IMG/VR virus record: IMGVR_UViG_3300045988_177631
Strand: one strand, 5' to 3'
Origin: a virus
Length of the DNA: 39,491 nucleotides
The notes under the pieces were generated by a model. The model saw only the letters and a list, made by a program, of their open reading frames with translations, had not been told where the DNA came from and did no database searches. Made by a program: the position numbers and the translations under genes. Numbering within the stretch: position 1 is the first letter of the stretch; each line of letters opens with the position of its first letter. Shown here in pieces: positions 34,974 to 39,491 of the stretch.

Positions 34974-36397
34974 AGGAGTCCCTCGAGTTTGAATGCGGCC
35001 GTCTCAGTCAATCGGTTCAGGGCGCGCGAGATGGCGTCAATTGTATCATCGTGCTTGCCAACAGGGGCAGCGGCAAACTCATCCAGCACTGGACGGGCTT
35101 GCTCCGCCGAGCAGACCACGTGGAAGCGCCCGTCCTGCACGATCGAGGACAGTGGGCGAGCACGGGTCATCTTGTCTCCGGTCTCCCTGCTGGTGTGCAC
35201 GGCATACCCCGTGAGGGCGATCGAGTACTGGTCGGCCGCCCGTTTGCCGGCGGCACCAGGATCGATCGGCAGGGACTGCTCGACCAACGGCCCATCCATG
35301 GCGGCCGTCCGCTTGATGGTGGCGTCCACCTTGGCCGAGCCCCACTGGCCACGCACAACGTCCAGCAGGTAGACTCGGCCGGTGTCGTCGTGGATGCCAA
35401 CCAGTGCGCCCACGGTGTAGTCGCCCGCCCCCTCTGTGGCGGCCAAGTCCCAGCCCCGACACAGGCGCAGCTGCGGCAGGATCTCGCCATCCTTGACCAC
35501 CACTATATTAGAGGGGTCCAGATAGCCGCCGGACCGCGGGGCCGGCTGCTGCTGGAGCTGCGATGCCGAGCCGTAGGGTCCAAGCCGGCGCTCCAATGCC
35601 GCAACGGCGTCAGCATCGAATCTCTCCGGGAAGAAGAGCACCCCCTCCGGACCTCCCGTGCGCGGGTCCGTGAACCGCTGGGTGTTGTTGACGAACTTGC
35701 TGTCCCAGCGCATCGGGATGATCAGCTTCTCGTAGGTCGGGTCGGACAAGGCGATAGCCGCCGGATCCGACTCGTGGATCCGCTGCATGATCATCACGAT
35801 GGCGCTCTTCCGGTCATTGACCCGACTCGGAACTGTCTCGTTGAAGATCCGACCAGCCTCTTCGATGGCGGCGCGGCTGAACGCATCTTCCACGGTCATC
35901 GGATCGTCGATGATCACCCGGTCGCCCCGCTCCCCGGTCATGTTCCGGAATGCCATGCACACGCGTTGGCCGTAGGCCGTCGTCTCGAAGTTGATCTTCG
36001 AGTTCTGGTCCTTGGTCAGCTCAACGTGAGGGAAGAGGCTCCGGTACTCCGGGCTCTGCACCAGCCGCCGCATCTTGCGGGCGTCACGGGCCGAGAGCTG
36101 GGTGTTGTGGGCCACGCCGATGAACTTCAGGTTCGGTCGCCCGCAGGCCCACTCCCACGCTGGCCACATGACTGACACAAGCAGGCTCTTCATCGAGCCC
36201 GGGGGCACATTGATGACCAGACGCGTGATCTCGCCGCGTGACACGGCCTCCAGGTGCTCGCACATGGCGTCCAGGGCCCAACCCCAGGCGATCGGGCGGT
36301 CGTTCTCCAGGACCGGCCAGAAGACCCCCACGAAGTTCCTCAGGCTGCGGATAGAGTACTCCCGCAGCAACTGAGTGGCGAGCACATCAGCTTTCAC
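34970..36397 (-). CDS. terL: Terminase large subunit
   Basis: ORF track 475 aa. Walker A-like VPPGSMKS, Walker B RVIIDD and C-terminal nuclease motif GKHDDTIDA. Confidence 0.85.
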   Translation of the reverse strand: MKADVLATQLLREYSIRSLRNFVGVFWPVLENDRPIAWGWALDAMCEHLEAVSRGEITRLVINVPPGSMKSLLVSVMWPAWEWACGRPNLKFIGVAHNTQLSARDARKMRRLVQSPEYRSLFPHVELTKDQNSKINFETTAYGQRVCMAFRNMTGERGDRVIIDDPMTVEDAFSRAAIEEAGRIFNETVPSRVNDRKSAIVMIMQRIHESDPAAIALSDPTYEKLIIPMRWDSKFVNNTQRFTDPRTGGPEGVLFFPERFDADAVAALERRLGPYGSASQLQQQPAPRSGGYLDPSNIVVVKDGEILPQLRLCRGWDLAATEGAGDYTVGALVGIHDDTGRVYLLDVVRGQWGSAKVDATIKRTAAMDGPLVEQSLPIDPGAAGKRAADQYSIALTGYAVHTSRETGDKMTRARPLSSIVQDGRFHVVCSAEQARPVLDEFAAAPVGKHDDTIDAISRALNRLTETAAFKLEGLL

Positions 36398-36852
36398 AGG
36401 ACGGGCGCCCGCCCGATAGCGGCAAGGGCCTCCTTGATGTTGGCGGACTCCGTGTTCGACAGGTCCATGGCCTCAGCCTTTGTGGTAGCCCCACCAGTCA
36501 CGTCCAGCAACCTCCCCAGAGCCTGCAAGCGGACGGACTCGGACTCGGCTCCCAGTGCCAGCTGATACAGCCCCTGCATGGCCCGCGCACGGATGGCGGC
36601 CATGTTGGCCTCGGTAACCTCCAGCTGACGCAGCGACAGCTCGTTCTGCACGTCGTCGCGGTCGAGCAGAATCTCGGCCACCTGTGCCTCGCGCCCCTTC
36701 CACACGCCCAGCCGACGCAAGGCCTTCCTGCCGTTGTAGTCAACCAGGTAGGTGGCCACGAAGTCGTCCAGCGTCACCCCCTGGAAGATGTCTTCCCACG
36801 GATGTTCGCGAAGAGCCGTCTCGTTGATGGGAGGGAGATGCGGAGGTTTCAT
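36394..36852 (-). CDS. terS: Terminase small subunit
   Basis: ORF track 152 aa. GTGA-coupled to terL. Has an N-terminal helix-turn-helix-like segment. Confidence 0.6.
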   Translation of the reverse strand: MKPPHLPPINETALREHPWEDIFQGVTLDDFVATYLVDYNGRKALRRLGVWKGREAQVAEILLDRDDVQNELSLRQLEVTEANMAAIRARAMQGLYQLALGAESESVRLQALGRLLDVTGGATTKAEAMDLSNTESANIKEALAAIGRAPVL

Positions 36853-36881
36853 CGGGAATCAGACGTTCGGTGCTGCCCACA

Positions 36882-36890
36882 ATTCTAGCA
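36882..36890 (-). promoter_or_regulatory. Candidate late promoter, extended -10 TGCTAGAAT upstream of terS
   Basis: Read directly. No good -35, which suggests activator dependence. Confidence 0.4.
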
Positions 36891-36951
36891 TCTGGAGTGC
36901 ACGGCCTCGCCCGGGACGACCCGTGGTCGCGGCCAGGTCAAAGGCGCCGAA

Positions 36952-36967
36952 CTGTATGCGCATACAG
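36952..36967. promoter_or_regulatory. LexA (SOS) box CTGTATGCGCATACAG
   Basis: Perfect 16-bp palindrome fitting CTGT-N8-ACAG. As I recall it, differs at one base from the E. coli recA operator core CTGTATGAGCATACAG. Confidence 0.7.
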
Positions 36968-36999
36968 CTCCAAAATGAGAATGACAATCCTGATCAAGC

Positions 37000-37021
37000 T
37001 GTAACAAGGTGTATCGTTACA
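37000..37021. promoter_or_regulatory. Operator-like inverted repeat TGTAAC-N10-GTTACA in the AT-rich island
   Basis: Read directly. Further half-sites lie at 37038-37043 and 37094-37099. The 13-mer GTGT(A/G)TCGTTACA is repeated at 37009 and 37087. Confidence 0.4.
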
Positions 37022-37112
37022 ATTTGTAGGACTTTTTTGTAACAGAAATTTTGGACCTAAGTTATTGATTCTGAACGATTTAAAAAGTGTGTCGTTACAT
37101 TTAACGTAGGTA

Positions 37113-37167
37113 CCCCTCTTTGGAAAAGCAGACTTTTTATATAGTCTTCCCTAAAGGGGCTTTTGTT
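37113..37167 (+). terminator. Candidate compound hairpin/terminator in the AT-rich island
   Basis: CCCCTcTTTGG pairs with CCcTAAAGGGG around an inner AGACT/AGTCT stem, followed by cttttgtt. Confidence 0.3.
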
Positions 37168-37335
37168 AAATGAATGTCAAATCTAGATGAGAACAATTTA
37201 CTAAACATCCGGAGGTGACGCCCCTCTCTCGGGCCTTTGCCCCTCCCTTTGCCTCGCGCTCGAGTGACCGGTATGCCGTTCGCCGCGCCGTGGCCGCCGC
37301 TCATCAGCCGCCTTGCCCCCTTGTGATCGCAGGGG

Positions 37336-37364
37336 TTGACAACCGTGTGCGAGGCGTGTACAGT
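37336..37364 (+). promoter_or_regulatory. Sigma70-like promoter TTGACA-N17-TACAGT (P1 of the ORF-free region)
   Basis: Read directly. The spacer carries TGTGCGAGG. Confidence 0.6.
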
Positions 37365-37370
37365 TCACCC

Positions 37371-38150
37371 ATCGACAGCGACAACGCTGGTCCGATGGCA
37401 GGGTCGGGTCCCAGACGGGAGCAACCGCAGACCTGGAGCCGATGGCGGATAGAAGGCGGAGTCAAAGTCCAAGGAATCAAGGTGCTTGACAGCGTGCAGA
37501 GACTCTGTCACAATGCCAAGCATCAAGCGGTAGCACCCGGCAACGCGTCGTGTGTGGATTGAAACTGAAGGTGAAATCCCGGGTGCTTTGAACGAGATCA
37601 TTGAACGGCCGGTCGGGTACAAGGCGATGCGAGTCTCAGGCTAGAGCGCGAGGCCTCCTAACTCCGGCAATGCAGCACCAAACGAGCACAGAACGTGGCG
37701 GTAGGAACAATCCTTGGGGTCAGAGGCCCCGAGCTCTAAATCCGCCAAAAGGGCAGCACAAGCCGCAGGGACTGAGTCTGGCTACCCCCGAAAGGGGGCG
37801 CAGGGTGACAAGGGAACCTGGGACCGCGCGTAACGGCGGGCCTGGCGCGAAGTCAGGGATTCCGACGATTGTGGTAGGCTGTAACCGTGTATCCCGTCAC
37901 GGGGTCGTACCGCCGCCAGCATCGGGGGCTAGCGCTGGCGAGCATCAATCTCCGGACAGTAGACGTTGACGCGTCTACTGGCTCAAGCACAGAGGGGTGC
38001 ACACCACTGTGTCAGGCCTAACGGAGGCAGGTTAAGTGCGTAATACCCGGGACAAATGAGCGGCACACAGAGCCCTCCTACCACGTCAATGGCTGGAGGT
38101 GACGTGCAAAGCGCTGCGGCCCGGGTTTCCTGCCTTTCATCTCCACCGAC
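37371..38150 (+). ncRNA. Candidate large structured non-coding RNA or long leader, class unknown
   Basis: No credible ORF on either strand, two early-type promoters facing in, and many GC-rich hairpins including a GNRA loop. The boundaries are approximate. Confidence 0.35.
37486..37514 (+). promoter_or_regulatory. Sigma70-like promoter TTGACA-N17-CACAAT (P2 of the ORF-free region)
   Basis: Read directly. Confidence 0.6.
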
Positions 38151-38158
38151 GAGCGGTA

Positions 38159-38188
38159 TTGACGCGACACTCATCCATGCGTTATGAT
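38159..38188 (+). promoter_or_regulatory. Sigma70-like promoter TTGACG-N18-TATGAT for the primase-helicase gene
   Basis: Read directly. Lies about 35 nt upstream of ATG 38224. Confidence 0.55.
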
Positions 38189-38223
38189 TCGCGTATCGTC
38201 AACGCTCACATGAGGCCTTCGGT

Positions 38224-39491
38224 ATGAAACTGTCACAACTGATCAAACACTGGGGGGTTGCTCGCAATCCCGCGAATGGTGACAAGCGCCCCTGGGGCAT
38301 CTCTCCGTCATCGGGCGGATGGATGCCGCTCTCAACCACTGACTTGCGTGGCTGGATGTCCGCCAAGGACGCGTGGGCCGCCGCCAAGAAGCTCGGTCCG
38401 TCTGCCCGAATCGGCGCCCTGCTGACCCCGGGCTGCGGCGTAACCGTGGTCGATATGGACGAGGACTATGCCTCGGACCAGATGGCCATGGTCGAGTGGA
38501 TGGACTCCTACGCCGAGATCTCCTCGAGCGGCCGTGGCACGCACATCTTCGTGCAGGCCAACCTGGCAGGCGGCGTCCGCGACGCGAAGCAGGACATCGA
38601 GGTCTATGGCCAGGAACGGTTCATCATCGTCACTGGCAACGTGATCAACGGCTGGGACGTGGTTGAGCCGCGTCAGGCCAAGATCGACCGCCTGGTGGCT
38701 CGTCTGGGCGGCCTGAAGTCCACGGTCAAGCCGGTTGCAGCCACTGTCACGGCCGGGGCCTCCGATGAGGCCTGTCGCGCCGCCCTGCAACGCGTGTGGA
38801 AGCAGGACAGGATCAAGAGGCTCTGGAAGGGCGACTGGCAGGCCATGGGCTACCCGTCGCAGTCCGAGGCCGATATGGCTCTGATCGAGGCACTGTGCTG
38901 GGCCACGGAAGATGACGCTGTGGTTGCCGCGACGTTCCGGAAGTCTGGTCTTGGCCAGCGCCAGAAGGCCCAGACCAATTACGTTGAGCGGACGATCAAT
39001 AGCCTGCGGAAGCGCCGCGAAGTCGGATCCGAGTACACGGAGATGGCTCATGCCATCGCCGGTATGGCATACTCCGAGACGTTGGTTGCCAAGGAAGCCG
39101 ATAAGGCTCAGGAGGTTGAGGCTAGGATGAGTCAAATTGACCCGCGGGACGCAATGATCCAGCGCTTGCTGGATCAGGTAACGGCGCTCACGGCCCAGGT
39201 TGCCGAACTGACCAAGCAGCTGGCCGAGGCTCGCGCGCCAAAGCCGGAGCCCGAGCCGCCGTCACCCGCTCGTTACACGGTCGATGAGAACGGTGTGATT
39301 GAAGAGGTTGACGAGGCTGCTGAAGAGATCGGCGAGGAAGAAGAGGGCGAGGCCGTCGTCGAGCAGTCCGACTGGATGGACCGGATGTTCGCGCGCGCCA
39401 ATGAGATGGCTCAGTCCGGCGAGCTCGACGTCCTGAAGGAGACGAGTGAGGAAGTGCCTGACATCGAGGATACGGTGGCTGTGATCAAGAC
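38224..39491 (+). CDS. Primase-polymerase/helicase fusion, N-terminal part (open at the window end; continues at 3..1400)
   Basis: ATG with gagg 8 nt upstream. I translated the frame to 39491 without meeting a stop. Prim-pol-like VVDMDED and SSGRGTHIF motifs. Absent from the ORF track because it has no stop inside the window. Confidence 0.8.
   Translation, partial: MKLSQLIKHWGVARNPANGDKRPWGISPSSGGWMPLSTTDLRGWMSAKDAWAAAKKLGPSARIGALLTPGCGVTVVDMDEDYASDQMAMVEWMDSYAEISSSGRGTHIFVQANLAGGVRDAKQDIEVYGQERFIIVTGNVINGWDVVEPRQAKIDRLVARLGGLKSTVKPVAATVTAGASDEACRAALQRVWKQDRIKRLWKGDWQAMGYPSQSEADMALIEALCWATEDDAVVAATFRKSGLGQRQKAQTNYVERTINSLRKRREVGSEYTEMAHAIAGMAYSETLVAKEADKAQEVEARMSQIDPRDAMIQRLLDQVTALTAQVAELTKQLAEARAPKPEPEPPSPARYTVDENGVIEEVDEAAEEIGEEEEGEAVVEQSDWMDRMFARANEMAQSGELDVLKETSEEVPDIEDTVAVIK
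39437..39491. repeat. 55-nt terminal direct repeat, exact copy of 1..55
   Basis: Read directly. Confidence 0.95.

Follow-up and report, generated by a model that had tools for sequence, protein, structure and literature searches.

Between terS and the primase-polymerase gene, the window (the whole 39,491-nucleotide stretch of viral DNA analysed here, IMGVR_UViG_3300045988_177631) carries a structured non-coding RNA of about 770 nt (37367–38137, plus strand) that is homologous in 22 contigs. Its 5′ end was placed from a promoter, P1, and its predicted 3′ end from a terminator-like stem and U-rich tail near 38135, both being read from the sequence. We consider it highly probable that this segment is a real structured RNA gene. 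The best explanation overall, to which we give a probability of roughly 0.4, is an RNA gene with loop-dependent control of read-through into the replication operon. A first-pass annotation of this DNA had proposed a large structured RNA belonging to no known family, and this proposal was right, because the synteny and promoter are conserved, base pairs change in a compensatory manner, G-U pairs are of a kind tolerated on the plus strand only, no ORF is conserved and no Rfam family matches.

The gene-free stretch in front of the replication gene extends from 36853 to 38223 and lacks a coding signal, the three codon positions differing in GC content by at most 0.13 across 36850–38223 compared with 0.3–0.5 in the flanking terS and primase genes. 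The first-pass annotation had seen no credible gene in this place and had dismissed two ORFs (37215–37562 and 37601–37969). Both are present in the window and neither is conserved in relatives, where the longest ORFs of 20 homologues vary in strand, frame and position. A conserved ORF or a codon-like substitution pattern in relatives had been named as the observation that would speak against an RNA, and neither was encountered in the 20 homologues: variable alignment columns across the RNA region show no 3-base periodicity (110/102/118), while the primase gene, used as a control, has 65/47/153 variable columns at codon positions 1, 2 and 3. A small ORF starting from an AUG near 38056 was rejected as unconserved, having by eye 43 codons in the window and 14 and 5 in two relatives. 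Long ORFs arise by chance in the GC-rich sequence of the RNA region, and in one relative (L128) an automatic gene caller put a 225-amino-acid minus-strand ORF over the homologous region; such spurious assignments call for caution in annotation.

Three promoter-like sites of the sigma-70 type were found, against 0.6 expected from shuffles, and all three lie where the first reading had placed them. P1 (TTGACA-N17-TACAGT, 37336–37364, plus strand), from which the RNA is predicted to be transcribed, has an equivalent in all relatives according to alignments and promoter scans; its spacing is unchanged there and its hexamers almost so, TTGACA-N17-TATAGT being the usual form. A separate promoter for the primase-polymerase gene lies at 38159–38188 (plus strand), as had been claimed; it forms the right-hand boundary of the RNA unit and its equivalent is present in every relative scanned. 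The idea of two promoters facing into the segment holds for P1, conserved throughout, and fails as a family feature for the P2-like site (37486–37514, plus strand), which is limited to the window and its closest relative, L002. The left boundary initially set at 37215 was too far left: positions 37215–37335 precede the conserved P1 and thus fall outside the transcript. On the minus strand, promoter scans revealed no antisense promoter in the window or in three relatives.

At the other end of the unit, a simple terminator scan found nothing in the window and nothing in three relatives, since an insert (18–70 nt, about 70 nt in the window) separates the two strands of the terminator-like stem. 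By reading, the closing stem runs straight into a U-run in L116 (AUUUUUG), L003 (GUUUUG) and L005 (UUUUG), and in most lineages of the main family it is followed by an interrupted U-tract, UUCCUGCUUUU. This tract can also pair with an upstream purine run, an arrangement that fits a stable 3′ end as well as it fits a regulated terminator. The RNA measures 0.45–0.75 kb in relatives, compared with about 770 nt in the window. Of the earlier alternatives, a large structured RNA or an unusually long leader of the replication operon, the structured RNA is well supported, and a discrete RNA is favoured over a leader by the terminator-like 3′ end and the separate, conserved primase promoter.

The homologues comprise the 22 copies plus two divergent ones (L003 and L005), all in metagenomic contigs of uncultured phages, and every one sits between terS and the primase gene wherever its contig reaches that far. 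L002, L003, L005 and L116 all come from the same metagenome (IMG sample 3300045988), one sample thus containing several members whose loops differ. The covariance-model search against Rfam suggested in the first-pass annotation matched no family in the window or in five relatives: Rfam 15 gave 0 matches at the gathering score in the whole window, only a sub-threshold CRISPR-DR9 hit and a chance sRNA match at E values up to 10 over 36800–38400, and nothing relevant at E values up to 1 in the five relatives. The models included GOLLD, ROOL, OLE, HEARO, raiA, C4, pRNA, RNase P, tmRNA, introns and riboswitches. Motifs resembling RNase P, rRNA or a CsrA sponge by eye were discarded, being without model support, and ARAGORN found no tRNA or tmRNA in the window. 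There is no DNA similarity to GenBank phages, and 185,579 reference genomes scanned both by RNA pattern and by primase profile yielded no locus. Cultured phages with primases about 32% identical have no equivalent gap and lack the RNA, which is thus accessory. Two protein-database searches with the primase returned few relatives only, three of which led to new RNA-bearing contigs. A covariance model of the 3′ domain (37944–38140) finds one copy in the window, at 163 bits, and fails to reach the L003 and L005 RNAs; a scan for further RNAs of their type gave chance matches only. The kinship of these two with the main family is suggested by their position, promoter, a shared CGGCCGGUC...CCGGC helix and an analogous loop pair.

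Comparative analysis gave strong support to the fold, answering the call in the first-pass annotation for a covariation test. In the 3′ domain, 94.5% of cells pair, compared with 38–44% when partners are slid by 1–3 columns; changes on both sides affect 24 pairs (7–11 in the slid controls) and 74 cells (7–19), and 0 of 500 shuffles reached the observed values. In the central and 5′ domains 88% of cells are paired, against 25–61% in slid controls. G-U pairs, tolerable on the plus strand only, occur at many positions in nearly all sequences. Folding energy, also proposed earlier as a check, gave a lower z-score for the plus strand (−1.8) than for the minus strand (−0.7), and is weak evidence for an RNA by itself. 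Helices that had been paired by eye at 37376–37389, 37532–37540/37579–37587, 37785–37798 (with its GNRA cap), 37824–37839, 37841–37857, 37914–37920/37934–37940, 37957–37980 and 37988–38011 have covariation support in relatives; the one drawn at 37893–37903 is probably replaced by CCGUG/CACGG, according to RNAalifold on six members.

All domains lie on the plus strand. The 5′ hairpin (37371–37396), in which AUCG/CGAU closes CAGCG-ACAA-CGCUG, is a shortened form of that of the family, whose orthologous helices are 99% paired over 16 distinct sequences. It is followed by a 5′ insert (37397–37600) found in the window and L002 and missing in the other 20 members, which contains the P2-like site, a CRISPR-DR9-like 36-mer (37530–37565) and the helix 37532–37540/37579–37587, kept paired in the L002 alignment by A-U to G-C and C-G to U-G changes. 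Further on, the invariant central helix GCCGG/CCGGC (37608–37668, 97.5% paired) surrounds a replaceable insert, which in the window contains the palindrome GAGGCCUC at 37650–37657 and in the alignment of other lineages gives way to a plain hairpin capped with UUCG, GCAA or UUUA. This local helix is better supported than the long-range GGCCGG pairing first proposed by RNAalifold, which we rejected. A second outer helix, GGCGG/CCGCC (37697–37746, 100% paired), encloses a hairpin (37713–37733) with five pairs changed on both sides, one of them occurring as C-G (10), G-C (5) and U-A (3). In the variable peripheral domain (37747–37950), compensatory changes affect 13 of the 40 pairs predicted by RNAalifold from the six members sharing this domain type. 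It consists of a long GNRA-capped hairpin (about 37763–37827), CCGC/GCGG (37824–37839), CCUGGC/GUCAGG (37841–37857), CCGUG/CACGG and CGCCAGC/GCUGGCG (37914–37940), and elsewhere in the family it gives way to different modules or, in L004, to almost none. Taken as a whole, the RNA comprises several domains; many of its unpaired nucleotides are conserved, and its peripheral modules are swappable.

A three-way junction closed by UCCG/CGGA (37951–38025) and supported by covariation (helices 1–4 of the 3′ analysis) bears two hairpins. Hairpin A (37958–37979) exposes the loop UUGACG at 37966–37971, while hairpin B (37980–38018) ends in the palindrome GUGCAC at 37997–38002. All 22 members of the main family keep a self-complementary apex on hairpin B despite its changing sequence: the window has GUGCAC, L002 has CUGCAG, and the remaining 20, L008 and L116 among them, have CCGGCCGG or its CGGCCG core. 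The 3′ domain (38026–38137), whose helices 5–11 all have compensatory changes, comprises an outer stem (38026–38031/38129–38134), the terminator-like stem (38045–38051/38120–38126) and, inside the latter, an inner hairpin (38074–38099) with the apical loop CGUCAA at 38084–38089; the U-rich tail stands at its end.

The loop of hairpin A is exactly complementary to this 6-nt apical loop within the terminator hairpin, allowing a 6-bp loop-loop pairing. Counted directly in the 22 copies, the pair is UUGGCG/CGCCAA in 21 and UUGACG/CGUCAA in one, the window, and all six base pairs are formed in each of the 19 distinct sequences. The window is the one main-family member with a compensatory loop change (G-C to A-U at one pair). 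The divergent RNAs use other pairs at the same locus, UGGCGG/CCGCCA in L003 and UGGCAC/GUGCCA in L005, located on the orthologous hairpin and the terminator apex, and in both a second hairpin bears the same complementary loop, so that one loop has two complementary partners. The loop-loop pairing is very likely to be real. A further CGUCAA in the primase 5′ UTR of the window (38199–38204) was rejected as a third kissing target after reading the 5′ UTRs of relatives: by eye, the lineage-specific hexamer is missing from those of a majority-type member and of L003. The 6-nt loop pair, complementary through four sequence versions and with one partner on a terminator hairpin near replication genes, offers an experimental handle.

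We propose that the host sigma-70 RNA polymerase would start at P1 and transcribe the non-coding plus-strand RNA of about 770 nt, which would fold into the 5′ domain, two invariant central helices bracketing swappable inserts, the variable peripheral domain, the three-way junction and the 3′ domain, whose closing stem and U-rich tail would resemble an intrinsic terminator whose loop is large and elaborated. The functional core of this self-recognising RNA would be the kissing contact, made either intramolecularly or by accumulated RNA pairing with the 3′ domain of another copy as it is being transcribed. This contact would decide whether the composite terminator forms, and the terminator would in turn set read-through from the strong P1 into the primase-polymerase/helicase operon, the remaining fold serving to stabilise the RNA and present the loops. 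Such a device would amount to specificity-bearing RNA control like that of the P4 CI and P1/P7 C4 immunity RNAs and of IncI/IncB antisense replication control. Taken on its own, the regulatory role in read-through into the replication operon is put forward tentatively. We judge it unlikely that the RNA goes further and acts as a self-recognising specificity determinant or RNA-only multimer, conferring RNA-based incompatibility or immunity in apparently lytic phages; the RNA that one phage has accumulated would then target the 3′ domain being transcribed from its own genome or from that of a related co-infecting phage, and the window, L003 and L005 would represent specificity groups separate from the UUGGCG/CGCCAA majority.

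Several observations speak against a regulatory role. Control of read-through from P1 may be unnecessary, because the conserved promoter of the primase gene itself lies downstream of the terminator-like element. A conserved structure of 450–770 nt far exceeds the needs of known kissing-loop attenuators, and the loop pairing could be a mere intramolecular tertiary contact of a trans-acting RNA. Loop compensation within the main family comes from one sequence only, that of the window. Neither a leader peptide nor an RNase P-type processing signal was found at the RNA locus; we found no repressor, integrase or partition gene pointing to an immunity or plasmid lifestyle, and the scans for antisense promoters were negative, as reported above.

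The main rival explanation, possible if somewhat doubtful in our view, is a trans-acting "ornate" RNA with no part in primase regulation: a stable early RNA that would form dimers or rings, assembled head-to-tail through its complementary loops in the manner of phi29 pRNA or through the hairpin B palindrome in the manner of a retroviral dimerisation site, and that would serve as a scaffold, decoy or anti-defence factor, as proposed for ROOL and GOLLD. The large, multi-domain architecture with conserved unpaired nucleotides and swappable modules agrees with this explanation, as do the discrete promoter-to-terminator unit with its separate primase promoter and the accessory nature of the RNA, missing from cultured phages with a related replication module. 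The hairpin B apex, palindromic in 22/22 members, adds −13 to −19 kcal/mol to the predicted homodimer, yet a stem lengthened by a few pairs under a GGCC or UGCA tetraloop would account for it equally well, and what the sequence shows is a potential for oligomerisation. One loop with two partners, as in L003 and L005, fits a network of contacts. ROOL, GOLLD and OLE are reported as RNA-only homo-oligomers (PMC12286853), but neither these RNAs nor pRNA matched in the Rfam searches. Finally, a trans-acting RNA gives no reason for the terminator hairpin always supplying, with its apex, one of the kissing partners.

It is rather improbable that the RNA is an origin transcript, in which transcription from P1, running through a purine-rich template beside an AT-rich region of iterons, would serve to activate or prime replication, as an R-loop or pre-primer for the primase-polymerase/helicase comparable to ColE1 RNA II or the T7 primary origin. 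The setting would suit such a function: the RNA lies between the replication gene and, on its opposite side, a conserved AT-rich region in which TGTAAC inverted repeats recur; across the RNA both GC skew and AT skew are positive; the adjacent gene product has an NrS-1-type primase-polymerase helix-bundle domain; and the early operon revealed no separate DNA polymerase gene. However, R-loop primers need neither hundreds of nucleotides of covarying helices nor a loop-loop contact, the 3′ end of the RNA appears to be a structured domain of terminator-like form instead of a hybrid-forming tract, and purine richness is typical of structured RNAs generally.

Less probable still is that the 36-mer at 37530–37565 is a solitary CRISPR repeat transcribed from P2 as an RNA anti-CRISPR, mimicking a host repeat ending in AUUGAAAC, with the large RNA as its carrier. 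The segment matches CRISPR-DR9 over the full length of the model (E = 9.6e-5 in a 1.6-kb search), including the 3′ GGAUUGAAAC, begins about 9 nt past the predicted P2 start site and, when the window is compared with L002, has diverged faster than the sequence on either side. Its score is nevertheless 31.4 bits against a gathering score of 45, and the repeat-type hairpin contains mismatches and is not kept in L002, which has GGAUAGGUUC instead of GGAUUGAAAC, while the alternative helix 37532–37540/37579–37587 covaries. Moreover, the remaining 20 members do not have the segment, the window shows no enrichment of GGATTGAAAC-like strings and a similar repeat was not found in plasmid records, so that the likeness is probably due to chance. 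That there is no RNA at all, the region being a decayed protein gene or acting at the DNA level, for instance as a packaging site or an array of protein-binding sites, would fit its position next to terS and the minus-strand ORF called in L128 (long ORFs being expected by chance in such GC-rich sequence), but it hardly deserves credence and is already largely refuted by the lack of codon-position GC signal, of any conserved ORF and of 3-periodic substitutions, by dozens of compensated pairs with G-U tolerated on the plus strand only, and by the bracketing promoter and terminator-like end.

Few large, elaborately folded bacterial or phage RNAs are known to us, most of them without an assigned function, and the present RNA adds a further family whose comparative support is unusually clean for a small sequence set. 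With GOLLD, ROOL and OLE it shares the 0.5–0.8 kb size class, a multi-domain fold with many covarying helices, phage origin and an unassigned function. The first-pass annotation had proposed the GOLLD/ROOL-type size class, which holds; a relationship beyond size is not supported. The present RNA matches no Rfam model in sequence or structure, is fixed between terS and a replication gene and not beside tRNAs, and comes from a GC-rich phage clade with proteobacterial-type promoters. A further shared trait is the presence of loops that could mediate RNA-RNA contacts.

The 36-nt segment is repeat-like and follows a promoter-like site, as would a CRISPR repeat or RNA anti-CRISPR, but it scores below the family threshold, is unconserved in L002 and overlaps a covarying helix. 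The pRNA of phi29, about 170 nt long, occurs in phages that package protein-primed genomes without TerS/TerL. It resembles the present RNA in being a phage-encoded structured RNA with two co-varying complementary loops, near packaging genes; the window phage, however, has both terS and terL, and its RNA has no Rfam match.

Parallels are also offered by RNAs that control replication. For ColIb-P9, the literature names UUGGCG as the loop motif in the binding of Inc RNA to its target, and in I-complex plasmids the kissing of RNAI with stem-loop I is described as the key step in rep control (PMC10724649). Likewise, in 21 of the 22 members a hairpin ahead of the replication gene bears UUGGCG in its loop, and a CGCCAA loop accompanies it. 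In contrast to the IncI/IncB/IncK systems, both loops lie here on the same strand of one transcript, with no antisense promoter in the window and three relatives and no conserved leader peptide found; the complementary loop caps a terminator hairpin, some 130 nt before the start codon, and does not lie at the RBS, and divergent lineages use other hexamers.

The P4 CI and P1/P7 C4 RNAs, which derive from the leaders of early or replication operons, are 70–80-nt, RNase P-processed species in which a loop is complementary to one or two later sites on the same transcript; loop and target co-vary, and the outcome is premature termination or a translational block ahead of replication or antirepressor genes. 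The present RNA differs from them in its length of 450–770 nt, in having no Rfam hit, C4 included, and no processing signal found, in the separate promoter of the downstream gene and in showing no sign of a temperate or plasmid lifestyle. It shares with them a loop complementary to a target on the same transcript, co-varying between lineages, and in L003 and L005 one loop faces two partners, as seqB of P4 faces seqA and seqC. If this contact does control read-through or RNA recognition, it would represent plasmid- or P4-style replication control carried by a much larger RNA in an apparently lytic phage.

At ~39.5 kb, the window appears to be a complete genome of siphophage type, with early and replication genes on the plus strand (~1–20 kb) and structural genes on the minus strand, terS (36394–36852) being the last of these. 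The following gene starts on the plus strand at 38224 and its product carries an NrS-1-type primase-polymerase helix-bundle domain. The first-pass annotation had described the intervening stretch (36853–38223) as gene-free, and this holds: the codon-position GC difference is at most 0.13 across 36850–38223, against 0.3–0.5 in genuine genes of this GC-rich genome, and relatives display neither a conserved ORF nor a codon-like pattern. No ORF over the RNA region keeps its position, frame or strand among homologues, and substitutions there lack the 3-base periodicity that the adjacent primase gene shows. GC content is 33–45% over 36900–37200 and 57–66% from 37200 rightward. A promoter scan returned exactly the three plus-strand sites that had been proposed (37336–37364, hereafter P1; 37486–37514, P2; and the primase promoter, 38159–38188), for 0.6 expected.

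The early operon encodes the primase-polymerase/helicase, a PDDEXK nuclease, a Sak4-like ATPase, a DUF669 protein, a Cas4-like exonuclease, a SNF2-type helicase, a dNMP kinase and an RNase H-fold exonuclease. No reverse transcriptase, Cas protein, repressor, integrase or partition gene was found in it, leaving no obvious protein partner for the RNA. Given the NrS-1 helix-bundle domain and since none of the early genes was recognised as encoding a DNA polymerase, the primase-polymerase may be the replicative initiator or polymerase. Its ORF (38224–39491) runs past the window end, and an ORF at the window start (1–1400) may be its continuation, though the frames join inexactly.

No Rfam 15 family reached the gathering score anywhere in the window, and five relatives were likewise blank. 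A permissive scan of 36800–38400 gave only a sub-threshold CRISPR-repeat match and a chance sRNA match; no tRNA or tmRNA was found, nor any DNA-level similarity to GenBank phages. Homologous sequence was found in 22 distinct contigs, collected through searches with the neighbouring primase gene, two short conserved DNA motifs and protein look-ups, and confirmed by nhmmer and a covariance model. Members share 50–99% pairwise identity, the most distant being the metagenomic contig L116, and every sufficiently long contig has the order terL, terS, AT-rich region, promoter, RNA, second promoter, primase. Two further loci, L003 and L005, whose primases are 76% and 50% identical to that of the window, have an RNA of another kind in this position, ~450 nt long and behind the same promoter. 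Cultured phages with ~32% identical primases have no such gap and no relative was found in reference bacterial genomes, which points to a small, uncultured clade. In one homologue (L128:2096–2773) the source's automatic call is a 225-aa minus-strand ORF without Pfam match lying over the RNA; annotations of GC-rich phage contigs are thus likely to show the RNA as a hypothetical protein. In another (L119:753–3328) the gene call immediately past the RNA divides the primase between two ORFs (290 and 568 aa); a frameshift or a misassembly may be the cause, or the gene may be truly split.

Pairing is conserved far beyond expectation. RNAalifold predicted 90 pairs from 16 sequences, 28 of them with compensatory changes, and nearly all sequences have G-U at several positions, a pairing tolerable on the plus strand only. 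In the 3' domain (37944–38140, 20 sequences) 94.5% of cells are paired versus 38–44% in slid controls, with changes on both sides in 24 pairs (7–11 in controls) and 74 cells (7–19), values reached by none of 500 shuffles. The central helices (88.6% paired versus 26–61%) and the 5' domain (87.6% versus 26–42%) each have five pairs changed on both sides, and 13 of 40 pairs are compensatory in the window-type variable domain (six sequences). Folding energy (z = -1.8) is unimpressive alone. The proposed reading as a large structured RNA of no known family is thus supported by both homologues and covariation, and we conclude that these large structured phage RNAs form a real family not catalogued before. 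The earlier extent (37215–38223) was accurately described, except that its first 120 bases (37215–37335) lie upstream of the conserved promoter.

Most helices previously paired by eye were recovered, including the GAAA-capped hairpin at 37785–37798, whose stem sequence varies among lineages. The first element after P1 is a 5' hairpin (37371–37396). A 200-nt insert with the P2-like site follows in the window and in contig L002 only; the other 20 members have there a compact 5' domain of ~140 nt. Just past this promoter, a 36-nt segment (37530–37565) resembles a CRISPR repeat and is matched by the whole Rfam CRISPR-DR9 model (E = 9.6e-5 within the searched region; 31.4 bits, under the threshold of 45). 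L002 keeps neither the 3' GGAUUGAAAC nor the hairpin of this segment, an overlapping helix (37532–40 with 37579–87) covarying instead, and the rest of the family lacks the segment, whose resemblance is probably due to chance but is noted as a lead. The invariant helix GCCGG/CCGGC (37608–37668) surrounds, depending on the lineage, either a simple tetraloop hairpin or a 45-nt insert; a second one, GGCGG/CCGCC (37697–37746), encloses a covarying hairpin with a lineage-dependent stem. Of the peripheral domain (37747–37950) there are four or more versions with no relation to one another, and contig L004 has hardly any of it; the way in which versions are combined suggests that lineages have exchanged them. 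In the divergent L003 RNA, the 5' part contains a direct tandem duplication of ~44 nt (L113:2503–2578), GCGATGGCGAGCGAAAAATCTCGGCCTGC being present twice; L005 is without it.

The conserved 3' third comprises a three-way junction with hairpins A and B (37951–38025) and, directly after it, the 3' domain proper (38026–38137). There, the stem ACCCGGG/CCCGGGU (38045–51 with 38120–26) encloses a branched insert and precedes a U-rich tail, which could alternatively pair with GGCAGG (38026–31). Since a U-run directly follows the equivalent stem in L116 (AUUUUUG), L003 (GUUUUG) and L005 (UUUUG), we read it as a putative terminator with an elaborated loop, to which a simple terminator scan is blind. 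A separate primase promoter lies downstream of the RNA in every lineage scanned.

Hairpin A has a 6-nt loop whose reverse complement is exactly the 6-nt loop at the apex of the hairpin inside the terminator stem. These loops are UUGGCG and CGCCAA in 21 main-family members, and UUGACG (37966–71) and CGUCAA (38084–89) in the window, by matched G-to-A and C-to-U changes. In this region no alignment of the L003 and L005 RNAs with the main family is possible, yet their arrangement is identical (UGGCGG with CCGCCA and UGGCAC with GUGCCA, respectively), in orthologous hairpins whose stems covary too, and a second hairpin bears the same complementary loop (CCGCCA in L003, GUGCCA in L005). As four loop sequences are complementary each time, the terminator apex always being one partner, and two random 6-nt loops match once in 4096, the predicted contact, within one molecule or between molecules, is very probably real. 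The apex of hairpin B is self-complementary in 22 of 22 main-family members despite sequence differences: GUGCAC in the window, CUGCAG in L002, and CCGGCCGG or its CGGCCG core in the other 20, L008 and L116 included. This palindrome, contributing -13 to -19 kcal/mol to the predicted homodimer, might serve in dimerisation, or just as well amount to a few additional pairs under a GGCC or UGCA tetraloop.

The flanks also carry candidate regulatory sequences. A perfect palindrome, CTGTATGCGCATACAG (36952–36967; CTGT-N8-ACAG), lies upstream of terS, ~100 nt from its start; the window has no second site of this kind, and relatives have similar sites at the equivalent place, two in L005. Such a palindrome has the form of a proteobacterial LexA box; it could place the late operon under SOS control and is a hint of a host among the beta- or gammaproteobacteria. 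The late promoter must lie within the AT-rich block (36990–37210, 33–45% GC), which is highly conserved among relatives. Four TGTAAC(A/G) copies alternate in orientation at 37000–37099 (seven in the whole window, 2.65 expected), and relatives have perfect inverted repeats, GTTACAAC...GTTGTAAC; all of these probably serve as operators, an origin or terminase-binding sites. Just upstream of P1, the GC-rich 37215–37335 holds repeated (C/T)GTGA(T/C)(C/T)GC motifs (e.g. TGTGATCGC at 37323–37331), which may be regulator sites for P1; they recur in relatives within otherwise variable sequence, together with alternating purine-pyrimidine runs (GCGCGCGTATGTGTG...). In members resembling contigs L049 and L069 (about half of the 22), a 7-bp inverted repeat absent from the window, ATCCATG-N11-CATGGAT (L049:990–1014 and equivalents), straddles the -10 box of the primase promoter and could be an operator or a 5'-UTR hairpin.

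For the well-supported kissing-loop contact, we tentatively propose, with a probability of about one in three, control of read-through: the contact would govern the composite terminator, whose state would set read-through from the strong P1 into the replication operon, possibly also in trans between RNAs of the same specificity. This is favoured by the terminator apex always being one loop partner, by loops that differ among co-occurring lineages, by one loop having two targets in two lineages and by the position immediately upstream of the replication genes. Against it, a promoter of its own serves the primase, such a switch requires a far smaller RNA, and neither an antisense promoter nor a processing signal was found. 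Almost the same likelihood attaches to an 'ornate' RNA that acts in trans and may be oligomeric, itself a doubtful reading; an origin transcript is improbable. Read-through control would liken the mode of action of this RNA to that of P4 CI, P1/P7 C4 and plasmid antisense systems. The majority hairpin A loop, UUGGCG, is the loop motif that reference titles and text of PMC10724649 name from classical work on the Inc RNA of ColIb-P9, one of the I-complex plasmids, in which a kissing complex controls rep expression (PMC10724649).
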